DNA of 64,000 nt from an uncultured Alphaproteobacteria bacterium (GCA_902576125.1 CACGUF010000005.1:18657-82656); one strand, 5' to 3'. Shown: positions 901 through 59,932, counted from the stretch's first letter. A program made the numbers and translations. Notes: a model not told the origin generated them from the sequence alone.

Positions 901-1491
901 TTAAATTAAGTGACCAAGCTTTTTTATTTTTGTTGATATATATTTTTCGTTATACTTATTTGTATTTGATGAAAGCGGTACACGCTGATTAATTTTAACA
1001 CCCATTGCTTCAAGTGCTTTTAATTTTTTTGGATTATTAGTCATAAGGTCAACTTCTTTTATTCCAAGAAAATTAACCATACCTGATACTATTTCATAAC
1101 CTCTTTCATCTTCTTTAAAGCCTAAATGATGGTTTGCTTCTACAGTATCTAAACCTTTATCCTGAAGGTTGTAAGCTCTAATTTTATTTGATAGACCTAT
1201 ACCTCTTCCTTCTTGTTGAAGATAAAAAACAACTCCACGGCCTTTTGCTGCAATTTGATTTAGTGACTCAGTTAATTGAAACCGACAATCACATCTCATA
1301 CTAAAGAAAGACTCACCAGTTATACATTGTGAATGAATCCTGCACAAAACAGGTTCATTGGTTAACAAGTCACCCATACCTATGGCTAAATGATCTTTGG
1401 AGTCTTTTTCATCTGTAAACGCATGAACAGTAAACTCCCCTACGTCAGTTGGTAGTTTGCTTGTTTCAATAAATTTCAATGTAGATGTCAT
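901..1491 (-). CDS. ribA: GTP cyclohydrolase II
   Basis: RIHSQCITGE..S.RCDC, QEGRGIGL, LMTNNPKK, K..KLGH; stand-alone (not RibB-fused). Confidence 0.96.
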   Translation of the reverse strand: MTSTLKFIETSKLPTDVGEFTVHAFTDEKDSKDHLAIGMGDLLTNEPVLCRIHSQCITGESFFSMRCDCRFQLTESLNQIAAKGRGVVFYLQQEGRGIGLSNKIRAYNLQDKGLDTVEANHHLGFKEDERGYEIVSGMVNFLGIKEVDLMTNNPKKLKALEAMGVKINQRVPLSSNTNKYNEKYISTKIKKLGHLI

Positions 1492-1536
1492 AAATAGAGT
1501 ATTGCTTTATCTCTTTAAATTTAATTGTAAATAATA

Positions 1537-2010
1537 TTATACTTTTGTTGGATTAGGGGCGTCACCATATACCTTTTTTGGATCAAAAACCTTTTCTTTT
1601 TCTTCAAATTTTAAAATTGTAGTAGAGCTATTTTCTCCAAAAGGAATACTTCTATAAAAGCAAGATCTATAACCTACATGACAACTTGCTCCACCCTGAA
1701 CGTCAACTCTCAACCACACACAATCCTGATCGTCATCAATTCTTATTTCTTTAATTGTTTGTACAAGCCCGCTAGTCTTACCTTTGTGCCATAATGTTTG
1801 TCTGCTCCGTGAATAATAAACTGCCTCCCCTAAAATTATTGTTTTTTTTAGCGCTTGTTTATTCATGTAACCCTGCATTAATACTTCGCCAGAATTAAAG
1901 TCAGTAGTTACAACAGGTATTAAACCGTCCTGATCAAATTTAGGGGCTAATTCAGTTGATTCTTCTATCTGTTCAACTGTTTTTCTTTTTTCAAACTTTA
2001 CTTCATTCAT
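1537..2010 (-). CDS. hisI: phosphoribosyl-AMP cyclohydrolase
   Basis: [33 protein letters not shown]; start moved to Met11 of the ORF (2010), overlapping the hemB stop. Confidence 0.93.
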
Positions 2011-3007
2011 TTCGTAATTCCTCTGCAATTTCTTTTGCAAAATATGTTAAAATACCATCTGCACCAGCTCTTTTGAATGACAAAAGAGATTCTTTAATAA
2101 CTTTTGACTCTAGCCAGCCATTTATAACAGCGCCTTTTATCATAGAATATTCTCCTGATACCTGATAAGCAAATGTAGGAACTTTAAACTCTGATTTAAC
2201 ACGCTGAATTATGTCAAGGTAAGGCATGCCTGGTTTAACCATAACTATATCTGCACCTTCATTTATATCCATCGCAACCTCTCTTAAAGCTTCATTACTA
2301 TTTGCAACATCCATTTGATAGGAAGATTTGCTTCCTCCTTTTAAATTTCCAGAAGAGCTAATGGCATCTCTAAATGGGCCATAAAATTTTGATGCATATT
2401 TTGCTGCATACGAAAGAATCAAAGTATTTTCAAATTTATTTTGATCCAAAATATTTCTTATTCTTCCAATTCTTCCATCCATCATATCAGACGGAGCAAT
2501 AATATCACAGCCTGCAGCTGCTTGAACAAGTGCTTGCTTTTCTAATATATCTAGTGTTGCATCGTTATTAACAATGTCATCAATAATAATACCATCATGC
2601 CCATGGTTTGTGTATGGATCAAGCGCAACATCACAAATAATTCCAATATCAGGAAAATTTTGTTTTATAAATTTTATAGTTCTGCATATTAAATTATTTT
2701 CATCAATTGCTTGAGATCCATTTTCATCTTTTAATGAATTATCAATTTGAGGAAATAATGCAATTGCAGGTATTTTTAATTTAACAACAGCTTCCAGTTC
2801 TTTTAAGATATTATCTATTGAATATCTAAAAACACTTGGCATAGATTTTATTTCATCAGCAATGTTATCCCCCTCACACACAAATATTGGCCATATTAAA
2901 TCATTTACTGATAGATTATTTTCACTAATCATTCTTCTTGAAAAATCTTTCATACGAAGTCTTCTTAGTCGTGTTGATGGAAACTGTCCTACTTTTATAT
3001 TTGTCAT
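2003..3007 (-). CDS. hemB: porphobilinogen synthase (delta-aminolevulinate dehydratase)
   Basis: [43 protein letters not shown]. Confidence 0.97.
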
Positions 3008-3008
3008 A

Positions 3009-4934
3009 TTAATTTATTGGAGAAAGAGATTCTTTTTGAAGGCTCTCTATTAATTCATCAAGCTTAATAGTTGATGTATTTTGACTGCCTAGTCTTCGAA
3101 CAGAAACAGTTTTATCATCGGCTTCTTTTTTTCCAACAGCAAGAATCACAGGCACTTTTGCATTACTGTGTTCACGAATTTTATAACCTATTTTTTCATT
3201 TCGTACATCTGCATCTGCTATTAATCCATTTTTAGTTAATTGATCCTTAACTTCATAAGCATAGTTATCAGACTCAGATGTTATTGTAGCAACTACAATT
3301 TGTAAGGGTGATAACCACAGCGGTAAATGTCCAGCATAGTGTTCAATTAAAATGCCAGTAAATCTCTCTAAAGAGCCAAAAAGAGCTCTATGTAACATCA
3401 CAGGCACTTTTTTCTGACCATCTTCACCCACATAGGTTGCGCCCAGTCTGTCCGGTAAATTCAAATCAACTTGAAGAGTTCCACACTGCCAGTCTCTTCC
3501 AATGGCATCACGAAGAACAAACTCTAGTTTAGGGCCATAAAAAGCACCTTCGCCTGGGTTGAGAGTATACTCAAGTCCAGTTGCTTCCATAGCCTGCATT
3601 AATGCTGCCTCAGCCTTATCCCAAACAGCGTCATCTCCTACCCGTTTTTCAGGTCTGTCAGAAAATTTAATTCTAACATTATCAAAGCCAAAATCTTTAT
3701 AGATACTAAGTATTAAGTCACATACGGTTTTACTTTCTTGAGTTATTTGATCTTCTGTACAAAATATATGTGCATCATCTTGTGTAAATGCTCTCACTCT
3801 CATTAAGCCATGCAGAGCACCAGAAGGTTCATATCGGTGTACTTTACCAAACTCAGATAAGAGAAAAGGAAGGTCACGATAACTTTTTAAACCTTGTTTA
3901 AAAATCTCTACAGCACCAGGACAGTTCATTGGTTTTATAGCGTATATTTTTTCATCTTTTGCTTCAGTTCTAAACATCATCTCACTAAACTTATCCCAAT
4001 GACCTGAGGCCTCCCAAAGAGATTTATCCATCATGTCAGGCGTGTTTGTTTCTACATAACCAGCTTTATCTTGTCTTTTTCGCATATAATTTATTAATGA
4101 TTGAAATAACCGCCATCCCTTAGGGTGCCAAAAAACTGCGCCAGGAGCCTCTTCCTGAAAATGAAATAAATCCATTTCTTTTCCAAGTTTGCGGTGATCT
4201 CTTTTTTCAGCTTCCTCAATCTGAAGTAAATGATTTTCTAATTCTTTTTCATTTCTCCAAGCCGTTCCATAAATGCGTGTTAGCATTGTATTATTTGAGT
4301 CACCTCTCCAATATGCTCCAGCAACTTTCATTAACTTAAAGCCTTTACCAATTTGTTTAGTGCTCAACATATGAGGACCACGACAAAGATCTAACCACTC
4401 TCCTTGTTTATAAATAGTTATTTCTTCATCGCCATTTAAATCTTCAATCAGCTCAACTTTATAGTCTTCACCTTTATTTTTAAAAAATTTTATAGCTTTA
4501 TCTTTTGACCAGACTTCTCTTGTAAATTTTTCATCCTTATAAATGATCTCATTCATTTTCTTTTCTATTTTTGGTAAGTCTGCAATTGTAAAAGGTTCAT
4601 TCCGAGCAAAGTCGTAATAAAAGCCATTTTCAATTGAAGGGCCAATTGTAACTTGTGTGTCTGGATATAAAGATTGCACAGCCTCTGCCATTACATGTGC
4701 ACAGTCATGTCTTATTATATCAAGAGCTTCATCATTTTCTCTTTTAATAATAACAACTTTGCAGTCATTATTAAGTGGAAGAGATAGATCGCAAATCTTT
4801 CCATCAATTTTTATAGCAACTGACTCTTTAGAAAGTGATTTAGAAATTTGACTTGCTAGTTCAAACCCTGAAATTCCTTTTTCTACTGATTTAGTCTTTC
4901 CATCAGGAAAGGTAATTATAATGTTGTTACTCAT
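3009..4934 (-). CDS. thrS: threonyl-tRNA synthetase
   Basis: N-terminal TGS domain, [36 protein letters not shown]. Confidence 0.98.
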
Positions 4935-6313
4935 GAGTCTTTACGCCAAATAGTCCCATTTTTTGTGTCCTCAATTTCTACACCCTTAGATTTAAGTTTA
5001 CCCCTTATTTGATCGGCTAATTTAAAATCTTTACTGCGTCTAGCTTCATTGCGCTGATTTATCAACCCTTCTATCTCCTCTTTTTCAGGATTTGCTGATT
5101 GATTATAGCCTAGCCACATGTTGGGATCTTCTTGCAATACACCAAGAATTTTTCCTACAGCTATTAAATTATTTTTAATATTCCTTTTTTCATCACTATT
5201 AGCTGATGATAATGTGTTAGATAATGTGTTAAGTTTAGCTAAAACTTTGGGTGTGTTAAGATCATCCAACAAACTTTCCATGATATCTTCCGATACACTC
5301 TCTGAAGAAATTTCTATATCTTGCAGATCTTTTAAAGAGCGATAAAAACGATCAAGCATTTTGCTGTTTTGATCTATAATTTCTTTTGTCCAGTTCAAGG
5401 GCTGTCTATAATGAGCAGACAAAAGAGTTAATCTTAATACCTCTCCCTTGTATTGTTTTATAAGGTCGTGTACTAATTTTATATTTCCAATAGATTTAGA
5501 CATTTTTTCACCCTCAACATTTACAAAACCATTATGAAACCAAAACTTTGCAAAACTCTCTGGCTCATGATTATCATCTAAAGAGCAGGTTTGAGCTATT
5601 TCATTTTCATGGTGTGGAAAAACTAAATCCATCCCTCCACTATGAATATCAAAAGGTAATCCTAGCGTCTTTTCAGACATTGCAGAACACTCAAGATGCC
5701 AACCCGGACGACCAAAACCCCAAGGCGAGTCCCAACCCGGTAAAGGGTCTGGCGATGGCTTCCACAAAATAAAATCAGCAGGATCTTTTTTGAAAGGCGC
5801 TACCTCTACTCTACTTCCTGCAATTTGTTCGTCACGATTTCTTTTTGATAAAACCCCATACTTTGAAAAGCTCGGCACATGAAAAAGAACATGTCCATCT
5901 TTTTCGTAAGCATAATTATTTTCAATTAGTTTTTTTATTAGCTCTATCATTTCACTGATGTGGTCAGTAGCGTGAGGCTGTATATCTGGAAGCTTAACAT
6001 TTAAATAACCCATATCTTCGTTATAAATTTTGGTATATTTTGTTGTTAAGTTTTTTATTGGCTCGTTTAGTTCATGGGCAGCATCTATAATTTTATCATC
6101 AATATCTGTTATATTCGATACATAGGTAACTTTATTGAACTGTGTTTTTAAAACATTAACTAAGAGATCATTCACAACGGCCATTCTTGCATTTCCAATA
6201 TGTGCAAAATTATAAACTGTTGGACCACATGCATAAATTCGAACGTTATCTCTATCAACAGGTTTAAAAGTTTCTTTTTTTCCAGATAAAGTGTTGTGAA
6301 TTTTAAAGATCAT
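4931..6313 (-). CDS. cysS: cysteinyl-tRNA synthetase
   Basis: [34 protein letters not shown]. Confidence 0.98.
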
Positions 6314-6330
6314 AAATTTTTTTATTGTTG

Positions 6331-6753
6331 TTAATATTTTAACTCAATCTCTACAGGTACACCGTGTTCTAATATGATTGCTGCTTTCTTAAATTTTGGC
6401 GGTCCTTTTGGAGAATAGTTATTGCTGAAAGCAAAACCTTCTTTTGGCCTCCAAAACATACCTGTCTTTAATTCGCCATTACCATCTTCATCATGATAAA
6501 CAACAATTGCTATTTCACCTTCATGGATTTTAGATAACGGAACTTCAACTTTCCCTTTTTTAACTTTTTTTCTAACTATCTCAACTGCCTCATCCTCTTT
6601 TAAAAAACTATCTTTTGAGTCATAAATTTTAACATCTATATAGCCATCATCATGCTCTACATTTGTTATAATAACAGTCCCATGCGATAAAACTACGCTG
6701 GAGAAAAATAATACAAGCAAAAAAACAATTTTTCGAATAAAAGTATTTTTCAT
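6331..6753 (-). CDS. secreted DUF2141-family protein
   Basis: Signal peptide; YHDEDGNGEL...PKEGFAFSNN...GPPKF. Confidence 0.8.
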   Translation of the reverse strand: MKNTFIRKIVFLLVLFFSSVVLSHGTVIITNVEHDDGYIDVKIYDSKDSFLKEDEAVEIVRKKVKKGKVEVPLSKIHEGEIAIVVYHDEDGNGELKTGMFWRPKEGFAFSNNYSPKGPPKFKKAAIILEHGVPVEIELKY

Positions 6754-6781
6754 ATTTTTTACCTAATTATAATAGATTTCT

Positions 6782-7993
6782 GTGCTGAACAATAAAGAAT
6801 ACCTCAATAAGATTTTTCAATCCAATAAACCACTAATAATTTATAAAACTATTGGTGGATTTGATGTTTATACAGATTTCAAAGAAAGAATTGTCCTTAA
6901 CTCAAAGAATTTTAAAAGTTTTTTGAACATCAAATGTAATAAATTAAATTCAAAAATCAGAGAACTTAACTGCTACGTTGGCTTTTTTGGTTATGAGCTT
7001 TTATGTGAGAATATTAATATTAAGCTACCAAAACAAGAAACTTTGAATTTTTATCCCGGTTTAGTTTACAAACCTCAGACCATAATAAAAATAAGAAAAA
7101 ATATAACTATTAAAAGTTTATTAAAAGATTTTAGAAAAAAAATACCCTCACAAAAAAATTATAACTATTTCTATGAAAAAAAATTTAATTTAAATTTAAA
7201 TGAGGTACAGTATTCAAATCTCTTTAAGTATTTCTCTAAAAAAATTAAAATGGGAGAAACTTATCAAATTAAGATATGTCAAACCTATTCAAATAAATCA
7301 AATATTGATTCTGTTAATTTTTTTTGGAAACTGATGAGTATTAATGAGTCACCGGAGAGTTTTCTCATACGTGACAAAGATTATAGTATTATAAGTTGTT
7401 CCCCAGAGATGCTTATTAAAAAAAAGAAAAATACAATTATTACAAAACCTATTGCAGGAACTCTAAATCGTACTAAGAAAATGACAACTAAATATGCAAG
7501 AAGTTATTTTAAAAAAAATGAAAAAGAAAGCAAAGAACATAATATGATTGTGGATATGGAAAGAAATGATTTATCTCGCATATGTAGATCTGGTAGTGTC
7601 AAAATTTCAAAATTAAAGAGTGTAGAAAAATATAGAGATCTTTATCATTATGTAACGGAGATAAAAGGCTTACTTAAAGACAAGACTACTAATCATGATA
7701 TAATTTCAGCAATGATGCCTGGTGGCTCAGTAATCGGTTGTCCAAAAATTAATACGCTAAAACTTTTAAATAGTCGGGAAAGATTAAATCGAAATATTTA
7801 TACTGGTAGTTTTGGCTATATAAATGCAAATGGAGATATGCACTTTAGTATTATTATTCGTTCTATTTTGAATTTCAAAAAACGCTCAGAAATTTCTGCT
7901 GCAAGCGGTGTGGTAATTGATAGTAAACCAAAAAAAGAATACAAAGAAAATTATATCAAAGCAAAGTCACTTTTAGATTTATTTAAATTATGA
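6782..7993 (+). CDS. pabB: aminodeoxychorismate synthase component I (chorismate-binding enzyme)
   Basis: SPE, PIAGT, EHNMIVDMERNDL, PGGSVIGCPK, YTGSFG; in an operon with folP/folB/folK. Confidence 0.85.
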   Translation: MLNNKEYLNKIFQSNKPLIIYKTIGGFDVYTDFKERIVLNSKNFKSFLNIKCNKLNSKIRELNCYVGFFGYELLCENINIKLPKQETLNFYPGLVYKPQTIIKIRKNITIKSLLKDFRKKIPSQKNYNYFYEKKFNLNLNEVQYSNLFKYFSKKIKMGETYQIKICQTYSNKSNIDSVNFFWKLMSINESPESFLIRDKDYSIISCSPEMLIKKKKNTIITKPIAGTLNRTKKMTTKYARSYFKKNEKESKEHNMIVDMERNDLSRICRSGSVKISKLKSVEKYRDLYHYVTEIKGLLKDKTTNHDIISAMMPGGSVIGCPKINTLKLLNSRERLNRNIYTGSFGYINANGDMHFSIIIRSILNFKKRSEISAASGVVIDSKPKKEYKENYIKAKSLLDLFKL

Positions 7994-8547
7994 TTTACGT
8001 AATTGATCACGAAGACTCTTTCACTTATAACTTGGTGCATCTTTTTGAAAATTTTGGACAAACTTATGTTTCAAACTACTTTAATATTGATAAAAAAAAA
8101 TTGGACGCATGTAAGATTATTGTTTTTTCTCCTGGGCCGGGTGAACCATCTCACTATCCAGAAACACAGAAAATTTATTATCAATACAGGGGTTTAAAAA
8201 AAATAATTGGTATTTGCTTAGGATATCAACAGATTTTGTATGCTGAAAAAGGGCAGATAATTCCCCAAAAAAAAATATATCACGGATACCAATCAAGAAT
8301 AAAAGTCTTAAGAGAAAGTTTGATATTTAAGCCTAATAAAATCTTAATAGGAGGCCGTTACCATTCTTTAAAGCTAAAAGAGCCTTTTTCTAGTAAAACT
8401 CTTAAAATAACAATGAGATGTGTTGAAACTAATGTTGCTATGGCGATAGAAGATACTATTAATAGTGTTTATGGATTTCAATTTCACCCTGACTCTTTTT
8501 TGACAGTTGATGGCAAATTTCTTATTCAAAAAATCTTACAAGCTTAG
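7990..8547 (+). CDS. pabA: aminodeoxychorismate synthase glutamine amidotransferase subunit
   Basis: DSFTYNL, SPGPG, GICLG, RYHSL, GFQFHPDS (HPD instead of the usual HPE). Confidence 0.87.
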   Translation: MIYVIDHEDSFTYNLVHLFENFGQTYVSNYFNIDKKKLDACKIIVFSPGPGEPSHYPETQKIYYQYRGLKKIIGICLGYQQILYAEKGQIIPQKKIYHGYQSRIKVLRESLIFKPNKILIGGRYHSLKLKEPFSSKTLKITMRCVETNVAMAIEDTINSVYGFQFHPDSFLTVDGKFLIQKILQA

Positions 8548-9262
8548 TAATTTTCAGCAAGTCAAATATGATCATTTGTGGGGATCAACAGGTGTCTTCA
8601 CTACTATTCGTGTGTATGGAAATAGGCCTAAATATATTTTAATAAATGAACATATATCTCAACTTAATAAGAGTTTAAAAAAATTGAATATCCCCTTTTC
8701 ATTAACCCAAAACAAATTTTTGGACTTAATGCCAAATAATTTAAGAATAAAAAAATATGACCACTTATTAAGAGTTGCAATTAAAAAAAATATTTTATCA
8801 TTATCGCTACGTTTACGCCTAAAACCAAAAAAGAATTTTCAATGCAAGCTCGTAAATTATCAGAGATCAAACGCATTTATTAAAAATTTACAATATAAAA
8901 AAATATTATCGATGCAAAAAAAAATCGATATGCAAAAAGAAGAAATATTATTTTTCAAAAATCAAAATTTACTTGAGGGCTCAACCACAAATATAATAAT
9001 GATAAAAAGCAATAAAATTATTCTACCCAAAGGCAGTGTCTACAAAGGTATAACTTTACAATTTCTTCTGTCTAAAATAGGCAAAAATTATAGAAGTAAG
9101 TTTATTAAGTTTTCAGACCTAGAAAGAGCAGATGAAATAATATTAGTTGGTTCAGGAAAAGGAGTTATAAAAGTATCATCTATTCCTTCAATAAAATGGT
9201 TTAGCTCTTCTTCAAAAATGTTTAATAAGTTATTTTCTATATACAAAAATAAATTAAAATAA
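8510..9262 (+). CDS. pabC: 4-amino-4-deoxychorismate lyase (PLP class IV)
   Basis: GVFTTIR, EGSTTN, GIT motifs; lies between pabA and folP. Confidence 0.75.
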   Translation: MANFLFKKSYKLSNFQQVKYDHLWGSTGVFTTIRVYGNRPKYILINEHISQLNKSLKKLNIPFSLTQNKFLDLMPNNLRIKKYDHLLRVAIKKNILSLSLRLRLKPKKNFQCKLVNYQRSNAFIKNLQYKKILSMQKKIDMQKEEILFFKNQNLLEGSTTNIIMIKSNKIILPKGSVYKGITLQFLLSKIGKNYRSKFIKFSDLERADEIILVGSGKGVIKVSSIPSIKWFSSSSKMFNKLFSIYKNKLK

Positions 9263-10080
9263 TGAAATTAAATAATTCTGAATTTTCAATCCTTTCACCT
9301 GCGATTATGGGTATATGTAATGTTACCAAAGATTCATTTAGTGATGGTGGAAAAAATTATAAAACATCTAATGCATTAAAATCAATAAACCTAATGCTAA
9401 ATAATGGTGCACAAATAATCGATATTGGTGCGGAGAGCACTAGGCCGGGTAGTGACTCAATTAGTTACAAAGATGAAATTAAAAAACTTTCACCAATTCT
9501 AAAAAAATTACCAAAAGACCAATTTATAATATCCATTGATTCTTCAAAAATTGAAACCCAAGAATTTGCTTTAGAAAATGGAGCTCATATTATTAATGAT
9601 ATATTCGGCGGTTCAGACGATCTTTTTCAGCTTACTAAAAAATACAAGAATGGGTTAGTACTTATGCATACACCCGCTCCACCTAAAATAATGCAATCAA
9701 AGGTAAATTCTTATAAAAATGTAGTAAATGACATCAGAAAAATTTTTAAATCTACGTTAAAAAAAACAGATAAATATAAAATACCTCAATCTAAAATATG
9801 GTTTGATCCTGGAATTGGATTTGGCAAAAATCTTGCACAAAATTTGGAAATTATGCAAAATATTGAAAAGTTTAAAATAAATAATTGTGGCATTTTATTA
9901 GGTTCATCAAGAAAAAGCTGGATTAGTGGAATAGATAAAAGCGATGCTAGCAATCGTCTCGGTGGATCAGTCGCATCTGCCCTTTATTGCTATAAAAAAG
10001 GAGTAAATATGTTTAGAGTCCACGATGTAAAGGAAACTTACCAGGCACTGAAAGTTTATAAAAATTTATGTTTAATGTAG
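9262..10080 (+). CDS. folP: dihydropteroate synthase
   Basis: MGICNVTKDSFSDGG, DIGAESTRPG, DPGIGFGK, SRKS, RVHDV. Confidence 0.96.
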   Translation: MKLNNSEFSILSPAIMGICNVTKDSFSDGGKNYKTSNALKSINLMLNNGAQIIDIGAESTRPGSDSISYKDEIKKLSPILKKLPKDQFIISIDSSKIETQEFALENGAHIINDIFGGSDDLFQLTKKYKNGLVLMHTPAPPKIMQSKVNSYKNVVNDIRKIFKSTLKKTDKYKIPQSKIWFDPGIGFGKNLAQNLEIMQNIEKFKINNCGILLGSSRKSWISGIDKSDASNRLGGSVASALYCYKKGVNMFRVHDVKETYQALKVYKNLCLM

Positions 10081-10412
10081 AAATAAAGAGTCTAAAAGTT
10101 TTTGCCAATATTGGAATTACTGCAGGAGAAAGAAAAAAAAAGCAATTATTAAAGGTTACATTAAACTTTAGTTATACTGTATCTAAAGGGAAAGGTTTAG
10201 AGTCAATGTCAAATCTTAAAGACTATTCTGGTATTACTAAATCATTAAAAGAGTATATTAACAAATCAAAGTACTCTACCTTGGAAAGATTGATCACCTC
10301 TTCCTCTCATATGTTAGAAAAAAAATTTAAATTAAACAAAGTTAAAATTAAGATTAATAAAACAGAAGTTGCAAAACGATACGGCGCAGAGTCAGTAAGT
10401 GTATCCAACTAA
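10068..10412 (+). CDS. folB: dihydroneopterin aldolase
   Basis: IGITAGER..KQ, DY, LERL pattern, ~114 aa, between folP and folK. Confidence 0.82.
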   Translation: MFNVEIKSLKVFANIGITAGERKKKQLLKVTLNFSYTVSKGKGLESMSNLKDYSGITKSLKEYINKSKYSTLERLITSSSHMLEKKFKLNKVKIKINKTEVAKRYGAESVSVSN

Positions 10413-10899
10413 TTATTATATAGCTCTTGGAACTAATGTAGGAAATTATAAAAATAATTTTTCTGCTGCAATTAATGAATTAGATAAAATAGGCAAAATT
10501 TCTAAGATTGCTAATATTTATAAATCAAAACCATACGGTTACTTAAATCAAAACTATTTTTATAACAGTGTGCTTGAACTTAAATCAAAAATGATGCCAA
10601 TACAATTAATGAAAAGCATTCATCTTATTGAAAAAAAATTAAAAAAAAATAAAAGAATAGTTAATGGCCCAAGAAAGATTGACCTAGATATAATTTTTTG
10701 GGGTAAAAAAAAATTTAGAAATCAAAATTTGTATATCCCGCATCCTCGAGCAAAAGAAAGAGATTTTGTGTTACTTCCTCTTATTGATCTAAATCCTTTT
10801 TTTAGAGATCCAGAAACTAAACTATCAATAAAAGATTTATTAAGTAGCTTGAAAGATCATTATGTGATTAAAAAATTAAGCTACAGCAATTTCTTTTAA
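10399..10899 (+). CDS. folK: 6-hydroxymethyl-7,8-dihydropterin pyrophosphokinase
   Basis: YIALGTN, GPRKIDLDI, IPHPRAKERDFVL. Confidence 0.95.
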   Translation: MYPTNYYIALGTNVGNYKNNFSAAINELDKIGKISKIANIYKSKPYGYLNQNYFYNSVLELKSKMMPIQLMKSIHLIEKKLKKNKRIVNGPRKIDLDIIFWGKKKFRNQNLYIPHPRAKERDFVLLPLIDLNPFFRDPETKLSIKDLLSSLKDHYVIKKLSYSNFF

Positions 10900-11526
10900 G
10901 AAATTTTTTAATTTCTTTGAAGAAATTATATTTTTAGTATTTTTAAGACTTCGTGAAACATCTATACCATCAGGTTTTAGTAAATTAATTATTTGTTTTG
11001 CTTTAGCTTGATTAATTCCCCCACCTATAAAAACTGGAATTGATAAGTTTTTAATTGATTTAATTTGCTTAACACACTTATTTAATGAATATGTTTTAAT
11101 GCTCTTTTTTTTGTACACGTTCATATCAAAATAGATAATATTTATTAAATTTTTGATATTTTTAATATATTGCAAATTAAAATTCTCAGGATTAATTGAA
11201 ATTCCAATTTTAAGTCTTTTAAAAGTTTTGCGTAACATTTGTAATTCATACTTACTAAAATGGTAAGAGCATGAAATAGTTTTAGGTTTAGTAAAGTCTA
11301 TTTGTTGAATTAATTTATCTAGTGAAACGTAACGACTAAGTAAAACTGACTCAATTTTGTAATTTTTGCATTCTTTAATTAATGACTGAATCTTTTTATC
11401 TGATGCAGTATTAGGACCATTTAAATTATTGCTTGCAAAACCAAGATATTTTATTTGATTTTTGTGTGCAGTTTTAACTGATAATCTATTAGTTATTCCA
11501 CAAATTTTTAGTGACACTTTATTCAT
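10876..11526 (-). CDS. trpF: divergent phosphoribosylanthranilate isomerase (TrpF)-like protein
   Basis: LKICGITN N-terminus, FIGGGIN and GIDVS motifs; no other trp genes nearby; converges on and overlaps folK. Confidence 0.72.
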   Translation of the reverse strand: MNKVSLKICGITNRLSVKTAHKNQIKYLGFASNNLNGPNTASDKKIQSLIKECKNYKIESVLLSRYVSLDKLIQQIDFTKPKTISCSYHFSKYELQMLRKTFKRLKIGISINPENFNLQYIKNIKNLINIIYFDMNVYKKKSIKTYSLNKCVKQIKSIKNLSIPVFIGGGINQAKAKQIINLLKPDGIDVSRSLKNTKNIISSKKLKNFLKEIAVA

Positions 11527-11578
11527 TAATATAAATATTTTATTATTAAAAAATACATGTAAACTACTTTGTTGTTCT

Positions 11579-13015
11579 ATGTCATTAAATTTTTATAGAA
11601 GAGTTGCATTCGGTTTATCACCGACAGATGATCTTCCTCAAGAACCTCTTAAATGGGCATTAAACCAATTAAATTCTATCCCTGATTTTTTATGGCAAGG
11701 CTCTATTCCAACAGAAAAAGAATTAAGAAAAAAATACGGAGAATGGGTATATGGAGATAGAAAAGTATTAAGAAAAAAATTTAAAAATGACAAAACTTCT
11801 TACAGAAAAGCAAAAGATGAATTGAGAATAGAAACTGGTGAAAGATATTTTGAGTTAAATGAACACGCTATTCGGCATTATCAAACAAAGTATGGAACTC
11901 AACCTGTATTTGAGCGCTTCTGGCTATTTTGGGGAAATCATTTTGCGATAAGTGAAAAAGATTCTTTACCAGAGTTCAGTACCGGCCCTTATCAACGTGA
12001 AATTATAAGACCCAACATGGTTAAAAATTTTGAAGAGATGGTTCAGGCTGTTACAACTTCGTGGAGCATGATTCATCACCTTGACAACTCAGAATCTGTT
12101 GGCCCCAATTCTAAAAAAGGAATTGAATGGAGGGAAACTATAAACGAAAATCATGCAAGAGAATTGTTAGAACTCCATACTGTATCTCCAAGTGCGGGAT
12201 ATACGCAAGAGGATGTAATCCAATTAGCATATATAATGACTGGTTGGGGTCACAAGTGGAGTAGGAAAAATCTAGAAACAGGGGATGTCTGGTTTGATCA
12301 AGAAAAGCATCAAAAAGGTGATAAGGTAGTTTTAGGTATCAATTATAAAAATGATGCAAAAAGGGAACTTGCAAAAGTAATCCATGATTTAGCTACACAC
12401 CCGATTTGTATTAAGTTTGTCTCAACTAAATTATGTAGGCACTTTATCACTGATGAACCAACGCAAGAAATGATAGACCCAGTAATTGAGGCATGGAATA
12501 AATCTAATGGTAATTTAATTGAAATTCATAAAGCTGTTGTTACTCAAGCTTTTAAATACAATGACAATACTCATAAATTTCATCCACCTGAAATCTGGTT
12601 AATGCAGTTATCTAGAATGTTCGATTTAAATATTCCTCTTTCAGCTGAAAAGATGAGCTATACCTTTAAACACAAACCAAATAATAAACAAAAAAAACTA
12701 TCGTGGATTCTGCGCGAACTAGGCAATTCACCTTATAGAGCTAAACAACCTAATGGTTGGAGTGATTTTGAAGTAGATTGGGTATCGCCAGAATTGTTAT
12801 TAAGACGTTTTTGGTTTGCTTCAGTTGAATTGCCATATCTAGTTAAATCACAAAATAAATCACATGATTTTATTTTAAGTTGTTTGAAAAATAATTTTGA
12901 AGATCATGAAAAAATCGCCTCTCTAATTGATCAATTTAGGTTCGGCACTACAGATAAAGATTTAGGGAGAAAATATGGAATTATATGCAATTTACCAGGA
13001 GTATTAAAGGTATGA
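11579..13015 (+). CDS. DUF1800-family protein
   Basis: FWGNHF, LDN, NENHARELLELHT, YTQEDV, TGW motifs; start refined to ATG 11579 to avoid overlap with trpF-like gene. Confidence 0.88.
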   Translation: MSLNFYRRVAFGLSPTDDLPQEPLKWALNQLNSIPDFLWQGSIPTEKELRKKYGEWVYGDRKVLRKKFKNDKTSYRKAKDELRIETGERYFELNEHAIRHYQTKYGTQPVFERFWLFWGNHFAISEKDSLPEFSTGPYQREIIRPNMVKNFEEMVQAVTTSWSMIHHLDNSESVGPNSKKGIEWRETINENHARELLELHTVSPSAGYTQEDVIQLAYIMTGWGHKWSRKNLETGDVWFDQEKHQKGDKVVLGINYKNDAKRELAKVIHDLATHPICIKFVSTKLCRHFITDEPTQEMIDPVIEAWNKSNGNLIEIHKAVVTQAFKYNDNTHKFHPPEIWLMQLSRMFDLNIPLSAEKMSYTFKHKPNNKQKKLSWILRELGNSPYRAKQPNGWSDFEVDWVSPELLLRRFWFASVELPYLVKSQNKSHDFILSCLKNNFEDHEKIASLIDQFRFGTTDKDLGRKYGIICNLPGVLKV

Positions 13016-14163
13016 ACTGTACAAGAAGAAATTTTTTAATTGGAGGATCAACAACATTATTTCTCTCAGGATTTTTCCCTAAAATTAGCTTTTCTTCCAT
13101 GAAGAAGAAAAACCTAATAATTATTTCACTTCGTGGGGGAATGGATGGACTAACAGCAATACCAATAATTGGAGATAAGCGATTAAAGAAGTTAAGAAAA
13201 AAACTAATCTTAGAGGATGTTTTAAAATTAAATAATGATTTTGGTCTTCATCCTAAATTAGAAATTTTTCATCGACTTTGGAAAGATGATAAGGCAGCAT
13301 TTGTTCATGCAACTAATATTCCTTATACAGGTAGATCACATTTTGATGGACAAAATCTAATGGAAACAGGGGCTCACATTCCATACAAAGAAAAGACCGG
13401 ATGGCTTGGGAGGGGGTTGTTAGCATCAGATATTGTTGGAAAGGGTCTTGCAATATCTTTGCCTATGCCACTTTTATTAAGAGGAGTTCCTCAAAACAAT
13501 AACTTCTTTCCATCTCCAGATTTTGTTGAAAAAAAATTGATAGATAAAATTTATAATGAGTTTAAAGGTGATCATAATGAGCTCATCAAATCTACATTAG
13601 ATACAATCAGGCAAAGACCATTATCAATGCAAATTGCAACAGACTCAGGAGATAGAAAAAAACTTGCTCTTGAGGCTGCAAAACAATTAAAAGATCAAAG
13701 TGGTCCAAGAGTAGCTGTTTTTGAATTAGATGGTTTTGATACTCATGCAGCACAGGGAGGTGTGGATGGAGCTCATGCTGATGAATTAGAAGAGGTAAAT
13801 GAAATTGTAAAAATTCTAAGCGAAAATCTGGGCAATGCTTTTGATAATACTCTTATTTTGACCTTAACAGAATTTGGAAGAACAATAAAACAAAATGGAG
13901 GTTATGGAACAGAACACGGTTATGGTAGTGCAATATTAATGGCAGGTGGTTTGTTAAAAAAATCACAGGTGTATACAGATTGGCCTGGTTTAAAAAAGAA
14001 AGAATTATTTGAAGGTAGAGATCTAAATTCCACTATTGATTCAAGAGCTGTTTATAATTCAGCCATGTCTATTTGTTTTGATAAGGATCCGGAATTTTTA
14101 CGCCGAGAAGTTTTTTGGGGAGATGATTTGCCAAATTTAACTGAAGAATTGTTTAAGATTTAG
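13012..14163 (+). CDS. DUF1501-family protein with Tat signal
   Basis: TRRNFL twin-arginine signal, LRGGMDGL, RSHFDGQ, GFDTHA, EFGRT, GTEHG; ATGA overlap with DUF1800 stop. Confidence 0.88.
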   Translation: MNCTRRNFLIGGSTTLFLSGFFPKISFSSMKKKNLIIISLRGGMDGLTAIPIIGDKRLKKLRKKLILEDVLKLNNDFGLHPKLEIFHRLWKDDKAAFVHATNIPYTGRSHFDGQNLMETGAHIPYKEKTGWLGRGLLASDIVGKGLAISLPMPLLLRGVPQNNNFFPSPDFVEKKLIDKIYNEFKGDHNELIKSTLDTIRQRPLSMQIATDSGDRKKLALEAAKQLKDQSGPRVAVFELDGFDTHAAQGGVDGAHADELEEVNEIVKILSENLGNAFDNTLILTLTEFGRTIKQNGGYGTEHGYGSAILMAGGLLKKSQVYTDWPGLKKKELFEGRDLNSTIDSRAVYNSAMSICFDKDPEFLRREVFWGDDLPNLTEELFKI

Positions 14164-19489: not shown

Positions 19490-20512
19490 ATGAAAAACTA
19501 TTTTCTCAAACTCTTAGCAACTTTTTGTTTTATTTTTTGTTTTACTGAGACTGTTTATGCAAAAAGTGAAGTAAATGTATATTCTTACAGACAACCAATA
19601 CTTATAGACCCTTTTTTTGATGAGTTTACAAAAACCACTGGAATAAAAGTAAATGTTCTTCATGCTAAAAAAGGTCTTTTAGAAAGGGTAATTTCAGAAG
19701 GAGCTAATACGCCTGCAGATTTAGTTTTGACAGTAGATATTGCTAGATTGAGTCAATTTGTTCAAAAAGATTTATTAATGGAAGTGAGTTCTGATATTCT
19801 AAATAAAAATATTCCTTCACATCTTAGAGATAGTAACAATAAATGGTTTGCACTATCAAAGAGAGCAAGGATATTAGCAGTATCAAAAGACAGAGTTTCT
19901 AATAATTCTATTAAGAATATAGAAGACCTCGCTGATCCAAAATGGAGAGGAAAAATATGTACAAGACCTGGCAGTCATGACTACAATAGATCTTTATTAG
20001 CATCAATTATTGCTGCTAATGGAGAACAAAAAGCAGAAGAGTGGGCATCGAATTTAGTTTTAAACTTAGCAAGAAAACCAGAAGGAAATGACAGAGCACA
20101 AGCTAAGGCAGTCCATGAAGGCGTTTGTGACATTGCTGTGATGAATACTTATTATTTTGGTAAGATGAAATTTAATGAAAAGAATCCAGAACAAAAAGAA
20201 TGGGCAAAATCCATTAACTTAATATTTACTAATCAAGATAACAGAGGAAATCATATAAACGTTGCAGGTGGTGGTGTTGTAAAATATTCAAAAAATAAGG
20301 ATAATGCTATAGCTCTACTTGAGTTTTTAACTCAGCCAGAGGCACAAGTATTATACTCAAAAATGAATTATGAATATCCAGTAAATCCAAACGTTGAACC
20401 CTCTGAAGAGCTAAGCTCCTGGGGAGTTTTTAAAGAAGACCAATTGCCCGTTGAGCGACTTGCAGAACTTGCACCTACTGCACAAAAAATTATTGATAGA
20501 GTTGGTTGGTAG
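19490..20512 (+). CDS. Fe3+ ABC transporter substrate-binding protein (FutA/FbpA/Sfu family)
   Basis: VNVYSYRQ, EGANTPADL..TVD, GNDRAQ, NTYY (Fe-ligand Tyr pair), GNHINVAG. Confidence 0.92.
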   Translation: MKNYFLKLLATFCFIFCFTETVYAKSEVNVYSYRQPILIDPFFDEFTKTTGIKVNVLHAKKGLLERVISEGANTPADLVLTVDIARLSQFVQKDLLMEVSSDILNKNIPSHLRDSNNKWFALSKRARILAVSKDRVSNNSIKNIEDLADPKWRGKICTRPGSHDYNRSLLASIIAANGEQKAEEWASNLVLNLARKPEGNDRAQAKAVHEGVCDIAVMNTYYFGKMKFNEKNPEQKEWAKSINLIFTNQDNRGNHINVAGGGVVKYSKNKDNAIALLEFLTQPEAQVLYSKMNYEYPVNPNVEPSEELSSWGVFKEDQLPVERLAELAPTAQKIIDRVGW

Positions 20513-22125
20513 CCTATAAGGGCTTTATCGTGTCTAGTTGGAATATTTGGTCAGTACCGGTTGGAATTATATCTTTAGTTATAATTTCTCCAGTACTGGC
20601 TATTTTTTATTCAGCCCTTTTGGGGGACACAACTTTATGGCCACATCTTTTTTCAACAGTCTTACCAAGATATCTCCTCAATACTTTATTATTAATGTTA
20701 GGTGTTGGAAGTTTAAGTTTGCTCTTTGGTATATCTACTGCATGGCTTGTATCCAGATATGAATTTCCAGGAAGGTCTATTTTTGAATGGGCCCTTTTAT
20801 TACCTGCCGCAGTCCCAGCTTATATCATTGCTTATACTTATACGGATCTCTTAGAATATGCCGGTCCTGTGCAAGGTTATTTAAGAGAAATTTTTAATTG
20901 GCAAAACTCACAAGATTATTGGTTTCCTAATATAAGATCATTGGAAGGAGCTATCCTAGTTATGTCATCAGTGCTGTATCCATACGTTTATTTATTAACT
21001 CGGGCATCATTCATGACTCTTCCTATTTCATATTTTCAAACAAGTGCAATTTATGGTCGAAAACCTTTTTTTGCTGTTGCACTTCCATTGGCAAGACCAG
21101 CAATAATTGCTGGTTTGGCTTTAGTCTTGATGGAAACAATTTCTGATTTTGGCACTGTAGATTATTTTGCAATAGAGACTTTAACTCTGGGTGTTTTTAA
21201 TGTGTGGCTCGGAATGAACAGCTTATCTGGTGCAGCTCAAATATCTTCAATATTATTTTTTATAGTAGTAATACTTCTAACTTTAGAATTAATAGCAAGG
21301 CGAAATCAGAGATTTTATGAAAAACATAGCAGACAAGAATCAATAGATTTAGAAGAGATTTCAAAATTTAAAAAAATATTATTTTTTATAACCTGTTTAA
21401 TTCCACTGATACTTGGTTTTATTATTCCAGTATCTGTTTTATTCAACTTTGTTTTAAAGGGTTATGCTGTTGTTAATATAAGTGAAGTTGTAGATACGGC
21501 TATTACAAGTATTTCTATTTCATTTGTTGCATCTACAACAATCATGCTTTTATCTTTTCTTATGGTAGTTGTTGCAACATACAAATCTAACACTTTTCAG
21601 AAATTACTAATTTTTTTAGCATCTTGTGGATATGCATTTCCTGGTACAATTTTAGCTGTTGGTGTTGTTGTTTTTGTAGGATGGTTAAATGATATATTTT
21701 ATTTTCACATGAGTTATTTTATTGGGGGTTTTTTGGTATTAATTTTTGCTTATACATTAAGGTTTTTAGCTATTGGCAATGGATCAATAAGATCAGGTAT
21801 TATAAGAATTAACCCAAACCTTATTGACGCTTCAAGAACAATGGGCAGAAGTTTTTTAACAACAATGAAAAAAGTTATATTACCCCTTACGTACACAAAT
21901 ATATTGGTTGGTGGAATTTTAGTTTTTGTAGATATTTTAAAAGAACTTCCAATTACTCTTTTATTAAGACCTTTTAATTTTGAAACCCTTGCAACATATG
22001 TCTATCAATATGCATCAGATGAAATGTTGGAAGAGTCATCATTTGCGGCTCTAATAATTGTATTAGCGGGTCTTGGCCCAGTTATTTTTTTAAGTAGAAC
22101 AATAAAAAATATTCTAGTAAAATAA
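20506..22125 (+). CDS. Fe3+ ABC transporter permease (FbpB type)
   Basis: Duplicated permease domains; LYPYVYL, PLARPAI, DFG, KELP..LLLRPFNFETLA. Confidence 0.92.
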   Translation: MVAYKGFIVSSWNIWSVPVGIISLVIISPVLAIFYSALLGDTTLWPHLFSTVLPRYLLNTLLLMLGVGSLSLLFGISTAWLVSRYEFPGRSIFEWALLLPAAVPAYIIAYTYTDLLEYAGPVQGYLREIFNWQNSQDYWFPNIRSLEGAILVMSSVLYPYVYLLTRASFMTLPISYFQTSAIYGRKPFFAVALPLARPAIIAGLALVLMETISDFGTVDYFAIETLTLGVFNVWLGMNSLSGAAQISSILFFIVVILLTLELIARRNQRFYEKHSRQESIDLEEISKFKKILFFITCLIPLILGFIIPVSVLFNFVLKGYAVVNISEVVDTAITSISISFVASTTIMLLSFLMVVVATYKSNTFQKLLIFLASCGYAFPGTILAVGVVVFVGWLNDIFYFHMSYFIGGFLVLIFAYTLRFLAIGNGSIRSGIIRINPNLIDASRTMGRSFLTTMKKVILPLTYTNILVGGILVFVDILKELPITLLLRPFNFETLATYVYQYASDEMLEESSFAALIIVLAGLGPVIFLSRTIKNILVK

Positions 22126-22126
22126 A

Positions 22127-23176
22127 TTAATTAGCAGGAAAAATAAAAGCCTGCTCTTTATCTATCTCTATGCCTACTGCACTGGATTGATTTGGTAAAA
22201 AATTTGGTGGCATGTGACTATGAACGTGAACAATTTCATTATCATTATTTAATACTGATAAATGAACAAAACTATATCCGCCCATTAATTTTGAAGCCAT
22301 TACCGTTCCTTTAATTCCATTAACAGGAGTTTGTGCTTGATTTAATTTTACTGCTTCAGGCCTAATGTATACATCTACATTTTTAGACTCTAGGCTGTCA
22401 TCAACTTTAAACTCTCCAACAGGTGTTTCAACGGTTTTGTTTTTTACTATTCCACTAAATTTATTTGTTTCTCCAAAAAAATTTGCAACATATGATGAGT
22501 TTGGAAGATTATATAATTCTTTTGGAGATCCAGATTGTACTATCTTGCCTTCTTTATTCATAATATAAATTTTATTAGAAATAAACATAGCTTCAAAAGG
22601 ATCATGAGTAACAATTAAAACTGAAATATTAGACTTTTGAAGTAGATGTAAAGTATCATCCCTAACCTCTTCTCTTAAATTTAAATCTAGACTTGAAAAT
22701 GGTTCATCAAGTAACAAAATATCTGGTTTTGAAATAATTGAACGTGCCAAAGCTACTCTTTGTTGTTCACCACCACTTAATTCGTGTGGATATTTATTTA
22801 AAGAATCCGATAGTTTAATTACATCTAGTATTTCCTGAATTGTATGTGAGGTAGATTTATTTTTGATAGCAAATTGCAAGTTTTCTTTTACTGTTTGGTG
22901 TGGAAACAAAGCATAGTCTTGAAATAAAAAACCTATTTTTCTTTTTTCTGTTTTTAAATGAACATCATTTGAACTTACTAGATTGCCATTTAAAAAAATT
23001 TCTCCATCTTGGACATGCGATAAACCTGCAATGAGTTTTAATAAAGTTGTTTTTCCACACCCTGAAGGGCCAAGAATGCAGGCAATAGAATCTTTTTTTA
23101 ATTCAAAATTAACATGATTTAAAATTGGTTTATTATTAATTTTGTGACTAAGTTTTTTTATATTTACTGCCAACAT
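22127..23176 (-). CDS. ABC transporter ATP-binding protein (FbpC-like)
   Basis: GPSGCGKTT, FQDYALFPH, LSGGEQQRVALAR, LLDEPF. Confidence 0.9.
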   Translation of the reverse strand: MLAVNIKKLSHKINNKPILNHVNFELKKDSIACILGPSGCGKTTLLKLIAGLSHVQDGEIFLNGNLVSSNDVHLKTEKRKIGFLFQDYALFPHQTVKENLQFAIKNKSTSHTIQEILDVIKLSDSLNKYPHELSGGEQQRVALARSIISKPDILLLDEPFSSLDLNLREEVRDDTLHLLQKSNISVLIVTHDPFEAMFISNKIYIMNKEGKIVQSGSPKELYNLPNSSYVANFFGETNKFSGIVKNKTVETPVGEFKVDDSLESKNVDVYIRPEAVKLNQAQTPVNGIKGTVMASKLMGGYSFVHLSVLNNDNEIVHVHSHMPPNFLPNQSSAVGIEIDKEQAFIFPAN

Positions 23177-32083: not shown

Positions 32084-32926
32084 TTAAATTTGAAAGTATA
32101 GGAGACATATACCCACTACCACAAATATCGAAGGAACTATTCTTTTAGATGCTTTTTTTTCTTTTAAAATAAGTAGGCCAATTAAAGTGGCAAATATTAT
32201 ACTAGTCTCCCGCATCGAAGACACATAGGCAATGGGTAAATATTGCATACACCAAACAGCTAACCCATAAGCTAAAGGTGCCAAAATTCCAAATGCAAAT
32301 CCTGGGAAAAAAAGATCTTTACTAATTATTCTTAAACCGTTCTCTTTAAATAAGAAGGACGCAATTAATGTTGGTACTCCATTAAGCAAAAGCATCCAAT
32401 ATAGAAAAGTGTAAGGATTTTCAGAATGTCTAACACCGATGCCATCTACCAAAGTATAAGTAGTAATCATAATAGCTGTTAACAAACCAAGAATAAGGGC
32501 CGAATAATTAAACTTTAATTTGTCAGAGTAAGAAATTAAAAATAAACCTGCACAGACAATCAAAATAGCAATGAATCCAAATAATGAAATTTTATCAGTT
32601 AAATAAATTAAACTTATTATAGCAAGTAATAAAGATGAACTTCCTCTAGCTATAGGATAAATGAAAGATAGATCCCCATACTTATAAGAGAAGATTACAA
32701 GCAATCTATAAAAACCATGAAGAAGAGCTGATATAATAATTAATATCCAAATATAGGTAGTTGGGTAAGGAACGCTTAAAACAAGAGGGGTGAAAATAAT
32801 AATTTCAACAACAGATGTAATACCTAAAACACCAAGTGGGTTTTTATTATATTTAAGAATGCTATGACAGGCTGCATGCGATAATGCAGCAATAAATAAA
32901 AGTAAAAATAAAAAATTAACTGACAT
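32084..32926 (-). CDS. DMT/EamA transporter, phosphonate-associated type
   Basis: AAL.HA, YKYGDLSFIYPIARG, YTLVDGIGVR, RETSIIF; last gene of the ABC operon divergent from phnA. Confidence 0.8.
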   Translation of the reverse strand: MSVNFLFLLLFIAALSHAACHSILKYNKNPLGVLGITSVVEIIIFTPLVLSVPYPTTYIWILIIISALLHGFYRLLVIFSYKYGDLSFIYPIARGSSSLLLAIISLIYLTDKISLFGFIAILIVCAGLFLISYSDKLKFNYSALILGLLTAIMITTYTLVDGIGVRHSENPYTFLYWMLLLNGVPTLIASFLFKENGLRIISKDLFFPGFAFGILAPLAYGLAVWCMQYLPIAYVSSMRETSIIFATLIGLLILKEKKASKRIVPSIFVVVGICLLYFQI

Positions 32927-32949
32927 GAGACAAAACTAGAAAATTTAGT

Positions 32950-35925: not shown

Positions 35926-35957
35926 TTGCCCCCCCTTTTTTTATATATACTTTGTAG

Positions 35958-36012
35958 TAAATTTTATGATTTTTTAAAATGAATTTATTTCATTTTTATC
36001 TAAATTTTATGA
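35958..36012. promoter_or_regulatory. candidate operator in the divergent ABC/phnA promoter region
   Basis: Inverted repeat AAAATGAA-TTTAT-TTCATTTT (35976-35996) flanked by direct repeats TAAATTTTATGA (35958-35969, 36001-36012); AT-rich background weakens it. Confidence 0.35.
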
Positions 36013-36088
36013 ACAAAAACTTAAATTATTATTGAGTTTAAGGAACATATAACTATAAATTCAATTTTTAAATTATTTATTAATCATT

Positions 36089-57260: not shown

Positions 57261-57283
57261 GAAGCTGGATATATTCCAGCCTC
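57261..57283 (-). terminator. hairpin after ppk
   Basis: GCTGGA-TATAT-TCCAGC core at the ppk stop codon; AT-rich tail on the minus strand. Confidence 0.5.
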
Positions 57284-59381: not shown

Positions 59382-59441
59382 AATTTTTTTTTATATTTTT
59401 TAGATATAAAAAAAACTCTTTCACAAAAAATTCATATTTCT

Positions 59442-59900: not shown

Positions 59901-59932
59901 ACGAGTTTAATACTTTAGATGTATACATTACC

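Follow-up and report, generated by a model that had tools for sequence, protein, structure and literature searches.

Folate synthesis without the GTP cyclohydrolase I FolE has, to our knowledge, been explained experimentally only in Chlamydia, where an ordinary TrpF moonlights in the pathway. FolE alone opens the ring, removes the formyl group, performs the Amadori rearrangement and closes the ring again, and it releases a triphosphate. Adams et al. (2014, mBio, PMC4161248) describe how TrpF of Chlamydia trachomatis instead converts the product of RibA into dihydroneopterin monophosphate, complements Escherichia coli lacking folE and makes FolQ unnecessary; there, a single ordinary TrpF, encoded outside the folate cluster, also keeps its isomerase activity for tryptophan synthesis. 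Here we analysed a stretch of 64,000 nucleotides (the window) from an uncultured alphaproteobacterium (GCA_902576125.1 CACGUF010000005.1:18657-82656), in which a diverged trpF-like gene, the paralog, abuts folK at the end of a pab/fol operon. The original prediction for this DNA had proposed that the paralog is dedicated to folate and works with RibA on the Chlamydia route. Supported by the absence of FolE, a separate canonical trpF and the linkage to fol genes, that proposal now seems to us probable: the paralog is likely to be an Amadori isomerase that makes dihydroneopterin phosphate from what GTP cyclohydrolase II produces and so replaces FolE.

As in Chlamydia, neither FolE nor FolE2 was found, folB, folK, folP and GTP cyclohydrolase II genes are present, and the candidate enzyme for the Amadori step is a barrel of the TrpF family. 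Unlike in Chlamydia, an intracellular parasite, the host is a free-living marine bacterium with pabABC, a separate diverged paralog lies against folK while canonical trpF sits in a trp cluster, and the activity is a predicted one. FolE and FolE2 hold the same place in the pathway, making the dihydroneopterin phosphate precursor from GTP, but share no homology with the paralog, and the two enzymes proposed here would give a monophosphate. PriA of Actinobacteria, a dual-substrate HisA/TrpF isomerase treated in PMC4161248 and PMC5445326, is likewise a barrel Amadori isomerase recruited to a second ribosylamine substrate; it belongs to the HisA family and is bifunctional, whereas the duplicate described here appears specialised. 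A literature search that did not extend to supplementary files found no paper on a TrpF paralog linked to fol genes, or on marine Alphaproteobacteria that bypass FolE. In the text available, PMC5445326 mentions TrpF and FolE only in other contexts, and the word 'folate' does not occur in that of PMC10308909. What is probably new here is a dedicated, specialised enzyme for the bypass known from Chlamydia, in free-living bacteria.

A TrpF-like gene meets a folate operon without folE

The window comes from contig C5 of an assembly of 1.26 Mb (37 contigs, approximately 31% G+C) with an estimated completeness of 72%. Open reading frame (ORF) calls together with Pfam and NCBIfam searches place pabB-pabA-pabC-folP-folB-folK in a tightly packed operon on the plus strand at 6782-10899. 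Adjacent ORFs share 1 to 41 bases when each is taken from its first possible start, and ORF and family searches of 6782-10899 found no FolE within the cluster, in agreement with the overlapping, folE-less operon described earlier. The genes under study are:

901-1491, minus strand: ribA, stand-alone GTP cyclohydrolase II (PF00925, 208 bits; TIGR00505, 243.9 bits, cut-off 205.85)
6782-7993, plus strand: pabB, aminodeoxychorismate synthase component I type, 403 amino acids (PF00425 Chorismate_bind, 251.8 bits)
7990-8547, plus strand: pabA, glutamine amidotransferase component (PF00117, GATase, 113 bits)
8507-9262, plus strand: pabC-like gene, aminotransferase class IV, aminodeoxychorismate lyase type (PF01063, 95.4 bits)
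9262-10080, plus strand: folP, dihydropteroate synthase (PF00809, 236.8 bits; TIGR01496, 273.4 bits, cut-off 162.6)
10068-10412, plus strand: folB-family gene, dihydroneopterin aldolase type (PF02152, 59.4 bits; FolB domain, 58 bits, cut-off 45)
10399-10899, plus strand: folK (HPPK), final gene of the operon (PF01288, 114.6 bits; TIGR01498, 121 bits, cut-off 54.1)
10876-11526, minus strand: TrpF-like paralog, 216 amino acids, proposed Amadori isomerase (PRAI, 22.2 bits)

The best NCBIfam match of pabB is PabB-clade2 (246 bits, below its cut-off), with trpE models scoring about equal, and pabA reaches 108.5 bits against the trpG/papA subfamily model, under the cut-off of 121.05. The pabC-like gene matches aminodeoxychorismate lyase best, again under the cut-off, and the folB-family gene falls short of the folB equivalog cut-off (43 versus 72). 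The assignment of pabB rests on length and context, and that of pabC on context.

The TrpF-like ORF proved real, with a 24-nt overlap between its 3' end and that of folK. It lies on the minus strand, a detail that had gone unstated, and is therefore convergent (tail to tail) with folK and outside the fol transcript. No trp gene was found among its neighbours in the window, and both motifs attributed to it are there, 'LKICGIT' at residues 6-12 and 'GIDVSRSLK' at residues 187-195. The A+T- and Lys-rich composition that it was said to share with the fol genes is also borne out: the paralog has 23.0% G+C and 16.7% Lys and the six pab/fol genes 24.6-30.1% and 10-18%, compared with 30-36% and 6-13% in flanking genes. 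Within 6001-12000, the block of pab/fol genes and paralog is 4-10 points lower in G+C than its flanks. Because G+C at third codon positions is alike in block and flanks, the shift lies in amino-acid make-up: the low G+C is caused by Lys/Asn/Ile-rich protein composition and not by third codon positions, and it looks like that of weakly constrained, probably low-expression genes of an A+T-rich genome. A promoter and terminator scan of 6200-12200 returned fewer promoter-like sites than shuffled sequence and none at the junction of folK and the paralog, and a search of sequencing runs listed no RNA run containing window positions 9262-11600.

On the other side of the paralog stands a DUF1800/DUF1501 gene pair (11462-14163, plus strand), the DUF1800 ORF of which, taken from its first possible start, overlaps the 5' end of the paralog by 65 bases. 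Most same-family loci have the pair in this position, though some do not, and the sister genus lacks it.

No FolE found across the order

Pfam profile searches found neither FolE (PF01227) nor FolE2 (PF02649) in the window's genome, nor in any of 41 relatives from the genus and its sister genus, 10 of which are at least 90% complete. Extended to 52 genomes of the order, the FolE search again came back empty; 51 of these assemblies reach at least 85% completeness, 22 reach at least 90% and one is closed. Run on 14 control genomes, the same searches recovered FolE from 11 and FolE2 from 5. Since folK is held by 40 of the 52 genomes, the gap is not attributable to incompleteness; folP, folB and pabABC accompany folK in the window and its relatives. 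The window's genome yielded no QueD/PTPS gene either.

The paralog travels with folate genes

Of 80 loci in public genomes, 76 have the paralog and folK as immediate tail-to-tail neighbours, with folB, folP, pabC, pabA and pabB after folK; the remaining 4 end within the paralog, and all 76 informative loci thus share the arrangement. None of the 80 has trp neighbours. Four further genera keep the arrangement of folK and paralog at 52-54% identity. So does the order's second family, in which identity falls to 35% and katG instead of DUF1800 forms the other flank. The pairing therefore persists from 94% to 35% protein identity. Across the 52 genomes of the order, all 40 that hold folK also hold the paralog. 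Among the 12 folK-less genomes, 11 are without it and the other has only its first 62 codons, at a contig end. Two genomes of other genera, G059 and G061, have cysS in a different neighbourhood without fol genes, which is compatible with a real absence.

The sister genus offers the strongest case, with replacement of the whole block. A three-gene ATP-binding cassette (ABC) transporter stands between katG and a binding-protein gene in G037 and in G025, the latter a closed genome; in G031 those two genes enclose the paralog and folK-folB-folP-pabC-pabA-pabB:

L121 7387-9932 (G025): ABC transporter
L122 11806-14358 (G037): ABC transporter
L015 8715-13492 (G031): seven-gene block

G025 retains canonical trpF-trpB-trpA while lacking the seven-gene block, and the paralog was found nowhere else in this closed genome. 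Given the swap in G025 and G037 and the retention of trpFBA in G025, the paralog is gained or lost with folate genes and not with tryptophan synthesis.

Median ratios of non-synonymous to synonymous differences (pN/pS), computed from ungapped pairs against the window only and with synonymous sites mostly saturated, were 0.27 for the paralog, 0.30 for folP, 0.32 for folB and 0.49 for folK. The paralog is under purifying selection like the fol genes.

We considered whether the linkage is accidental, with the paralog unrelated to folate and dihydroneopterin-type pterins, or the first product of the pathway, taken from the environment. Such a chance neighbourhood would suit a gene that is convergent to the fol operon and not co-transcribed with it; moreover, all evidence comes from one lineage of related genomes, and cluster-less members of the order evidently live without folate synthesis. 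It is nevertheless improbable, as it leaves aside a pairing that holds from 94% to 35% identity while the other flank changes, the disappearance of the paralog together with the fol genes from a closed genome, and selection on the paralog that resembles that on its neighbours. That a streamlined genome keeps folB and folK also implies an internal source of dihydroneopterin.

In the sister genus, the paralog of G071 (G071:C3:43942-44575) is in two overlapping pieces, one with a TAA stop, next to an intact folK; the split may stem from a frameshift, mark a pseudogene or be an artefact of assembly. At the block's position, the alternative transporter consists of an NMT1/THI5-like binding protein, an ATPase and a permease, with no assignable substrate. 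It was found in 11 of 61 genomes, comprising in that draw 7 of 7 known folK-less and 0 of 15 folK-holding ones, a mutually exclusive pattern of transporter and block, and adjoins the same flanking gene in the 5 cases checked. We speculate that the transporter may be an uptake system for a folate-type compound that replaces folate synthesis.

Tryptophan synthesis has its own trpF

The paralog is the single PRAI match in the window's own assembly, from which trpA is likewise missing. Twelve genes of a relative's rpsA-pyrF-trpF-trpB-trpA-accD-folC region gave no match there at E<=1e-8, with a working positive control; the lone PRAI match is thus explained by the rpsA-to-folC region being unassembled. 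In relatives, canonical trpF lies inside a pyrF-trpF-trpB-trpA cluster. Same-genus G022 carries it between pyrF and trpB-trpA (PRAI, 150.9 bits) alongside the fol-linked paralog (23 bits), which supplies the second, canonical trpF in a trp context that the original prediction had proposed to look for. A single protein query recovered both TrpF types in 8 genomes, and scores against a paralog profile are bimodal, at or above 258 bits for full-length paralogs and at or below 64 bits for canonical TrpFs. We conclude that the paralog is not the organism's trpF and that tryptophan synthesis is served by the separate canonical gene.

A second, fast-evolving phosphoribosylanthranilate isomerase for tryptophan synthesis is therefore a highly improbable identity for the paralog. 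By fold and sequence the protein is a TrpF homologue, and some members of its family are publicly annotated as phosphoribosylanthranilate isomerase. However, the same genomes have canonical trpF in a trp cluster, the paralog lacks the SPR and PGGN..W motifs and misses the TrpF equivalog cut-off widely (38 versus 224 bits), and one genome has lost it together with the fol block but retained trpFBA. Public annotation of the family alternates between 'hypothetical protein' and 'phosphoribosylanthranilate isomerase'; the latter label is probably wrong.

A TrpF barrel with an altered active site

With 22.2 bits against a cut-off of 22.7, the paralog narrowly fails to reach Pfam PRAI (PF00697), its sole family match, whereas its orthologs in G022 (23.1 bits) and G031 (31.0 bits) exceed that cut-off. 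Against the NCBIfam TrpF equivalogs, which have cut-offs of 172-232, the paralog does not exceed 38 bits. TrpF models are the best sequence matches in Pfam, NCBIfam and the PDB alike, the best PDB match being TrpF 4aaj (E 4e-9), in an alignment that sets the Cys of the paralog's KICG on that of TrpF 'KICG' and the Asp of its 'YYD' on that of TrpF 'LLD'. Identity is 13-20% to solved TrpFs and 20-25% to canonical TrpFs of the paralog's own order. An AlphaFold (AF2) model is a (beta-alpha)8 barrel with a predicted local distance difference test (pLDDT) score of 94.3 and a predicted template modelling (pTM) score of 0.90. Foldseek ranks 1-10 for this model are all TrpF structures, as are the top 8 VIA-align matches (Z 21.4-23.4; root-mean-square deviation, 2.1-2.9 A; 189-202 residues).

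Conservation was assessed over 19 paralog sequences, down to 34% identity. Invariant among them are C9, S32, G37-T40, S87, N112, Y132, D134, N136 and Y138, as well as G168-G169, D189, S191 and K195; G170 is nearly invariant (at least 90%), and G(I/L)D(V/I)S at 187-191 is conserved. In the AF2 model most invariant residues occupy the C-terminal ends of strands or the positions that follow directly, which in barrels of this kind is the catalytic face, and predicted strands 4-8 and 130-134 precede or hold C9 and D134. In TrpF, this Cys and Asp form the acid-base pair, an Arg binds the anthranilate carboxylate, and the SPR and PGGN..W elements hold the anthranilate part of the substrate. Judged from the alignments, the paralog keeps the catalytic Cys at the end of strand 1, the catalytic Asp at the end of strand 6 and the phosphate-binding loops after strands 7 and 8. 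It thus resembles canonical TrpF (PF00697; 4aaj, 1nsj/1lbm, 5lhf, 1v5x) in its barrel, in a Cys after strand 1 and an Asp after strand 6, and in the GG and D-x-S phosphate loops after strands 7 and 8. It departs from canonical TrpF in scoring below family cut-offs, in reading GPNT for SPR, in lacking the PGGN..W loop and in having no trp neighbours.

We compared this region with five canonical TrpFs of the order. Where these have SPR, after strand 2, the paralog clade has an invariant GPNT. The PGGN..(F/W)(D/N/E)W loop after strand 6, present in all five, is lacking in paralogs, which have 'N(V/I)Y'. The canonical proteins read D(L/I)(S/N)SGVE at the position of the paralog's GIDVSRSLK, and the strand-8 loop of the paralog has an added Arg and Lys. 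The exchange of SPR for GPNT and the loss of the PGGN..W loop suggest a changed specificity.

Strongly altered active-site surroundings would also be expected if the paralog served pterin or folate metabolism at another step or on another substrate, the ring being started by some other, unrecognised enzyme. A formylated or other ribosylamino-pyrimidine intermediate, an epimerisation or a reaction on the phosphorylated sugar side chain would be examples. Linkage and the gain and loss of the block show a folate connection and not an exact reaction, and ribulose-phosphate-binding barrels of other chemistries come close behind in structural comparison: 3-keto-L-gulonate-6-phosphate decarboxylase at Z 20.8 and ribulose-phosphate epimerase at Z 20.4, such that structure alone does not single out TrpF. 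We consider this alternative unlikely, if slightly easier to credit than an accident of gene order. The residues aligning with the 'KICG' Cys and the 'LLD' Asp are invariant, TrpF models are the best sequence matches in all three databases, and the block of the second family contains, besides pabABC and folPBK, only the paralog. With one extra gene in that block, no other candidate for the missing first step travels along.

GTP cyclohydrolase II and the proposed bypass

The folate-dedicated isomerase that we favour would depend on a GTP cyclohydrolase II, genes for which are found in 39 of the 41 relatives. In the window, ribA encodes a full-length enzyme and lies 5.3 kb from pabB, with hisI, hemB, thrS, cysS and a DUF2141 gene in between. 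Genomes of the same genus have up to three cyclohydrolase II genes, encoding a stand-alone form of approximately 198 amino acids, a PRK08815-like form of approximately 385 and a RibBA of approximately 368. In the sister genus there are two, a 372-amino-acid RibA form and a RibBA with a degenerate half, and no stand-alone ribA. The cyclohydrolase half of the RibBA encoded in the riboflavin operon, elsewhere in the genome, is degenerate (TIGR00505, 33 bits), which makes the stand-alone ribA a likely source of the diaminopyrimidine intermediate.

The nearby ribA of the original prediction is therefore real and complete, yet it has no specific tie to the cluster. A folate-dedicated role for the stand-alone gene is not supported, as the second family has the paralog and lacks this ribA; cyclohydrolase II is available, but this copy is not specifically bound to the fol genes. 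In G017 the contig stops before the fol position. The riboflavin operon itself, ribD-ribE-ribBA-ribH, was located at G000:C1 ~228040-230750 (L112 40-2749) and in the relatives at L115, L117 and L118.

Gene content, linkage, co-occurrence, the modelled fold and the conserved residues together suggest a substrate, a product and a physiological role for the paralog. RibA would open and deformylate GTP to give 2,5-diamino-6-ribosylamino-4(3H)-pyrimidinone 5'-phosphate, on which the TrpF-like barrel would perform an Amadori rearrangement as TrpF does on phosphoribosylanthranilate, with the conserved Cys and Asp as the putative acid/base pair. The resulting 2'-keto compound would close onto the 5-amino group to form 7,8-dihydroneopterin 3'-phosphate. 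After dephosphorylation, this product could enter the reactions of FolB, FolK and FolP, encoded next door. Such a route would replace FolE, which is absent from the whole lineage, and would make FolQ unnecessary.

Several points weigh against this assignment. FolE was found in no genome of the order, so that FolE absence cannot be contrasted with paralog presence inside it, and a non-homologous or undetectably diverged GTP cyclohydrolase I may have escaped the hidden Markov model searches. As in Chlamydia, promiscuity could lie with the canonical TrpF of these genomes, with the paralog employed elsewhere. The gene is opposite in strand to the fol operon, without co-transcription, and the decarboxylase and epimerase barrels are close rivals of TrpF in structure. 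Linkage and co-occurrence come entirely from one order of kin genomes and may reflect few independent events. In addition, the co-absence of paralog and fol genes in same-genus G021, G057 and G019 was dropped as evidence, because cysS is also missing there and the region is unassembled; G021 and G057 are two of the 11 paralog-less genomes and are discounted accordingly.

A lineage-restricted TrpF-derived clade

Among 1.84 billion representative proteins, three full-length paralog clusters (327, 285 and 260 bits) plus fragments were recovered, and the next full-length protein scored 82 bits. Of 401 genomes spread evenly over the class, three matched at E<=1e-20, all from the window's order. In the ESM Atlas, only clusters auto-named phosphoribosylanthranilate isomerase were found. 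The titles of the 80 public loci describe marine single-cell or metagenome assemblies labelled Alphaproteobacteria, Pelagibacterales, Pelagibacteraceae or MarineAlpha5, a lineage that looks like the SAR11-related group also called HIMB59 or AEGEAN-169.

A tree of 84 proteins unites the ten paralogs in a single clade with a Shimodaira-Hasegawa-like approximate likelihood ratio test (SH-aLRT) value of 100; a stem of 1.47 changes per site separates them from the other 74 proteins, all of TrpF type. The tree came from a quick search with SH-aLRT support only and includes 69 of the 110 representatives P0162-P0271, those of 195-240 amino acids. The two families of the order separate inside the paralog clade, which fits an origin before their divergence; whether the paralog derives from the lineage's own trpF or from elsewhere is left unsettled by the tree. 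Remote candidates for membership, P0162, P0165 and others (at most 82 bits), were rejected: they retain a loop of the form GG(T)G..(H/N)(D/N)W and, in the tree, fall among ordinary TrpFs, apart from the paralogs.

The evidence is evenly balanced on a wider proposal, in which a new lineage-restricted TrpF-derived family is the dedicated second half of a split GTP cyclohydrolase I function in an abundant group of marine bacterioplankton, the seven-gene block alternates at a single chromosomal position with an ABC transporter, and members of the lineage are either folate producers by an unconventional route or importers of a folate-type compound. If so, gene-content pipelines that require FolE would wrongly call all members auxotrophs. 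According to a 2026 survey requiring FolK and FolP, folate auxotrophy should be extensive among HIMB59 and Pelagibacterales (PMC13408713). The block-less genomes (12 of 52) agree with that prediction for part of the lineage, and block-holding genomes may be true folate producers despite an apparently incomplete pathway. Should the assignment of the paralog be correct, the bypass would be not a parasite oddity but a route stabilised by duplication and specialisation in streamlined ocean bacteria, with a bearing on the vitamin-exchange ecology of marine bacterioplankton. The pair of canonical and specialised enzymes would also suit the study of substrate change in a barrel isomerase.

Other genes of the window

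Beyond the folate locus, the window carries a large set of phosphonate-use genes at 19490-23176, 32084-38769, 41337-42449, 45107-46210 and 52547-53107. Among them are parts of a 2-aminoethylphosphonate-type ABC transporter, phosphonoacetate hydrolase PhnA and phosphonoacetaldehyde dehydrogenase, as well as a phosphonate-type iron alcohol dehydrogenase, a PhnW transaminase and an HD-domain phosphonate oxygenase. At 57282-60838, the gene for polyphosphate kinase 1 is divergent from one of exopolyphosphatase type, and together with the phosphonate genes they mark this part of the window as a phosphorus-acquisition region.

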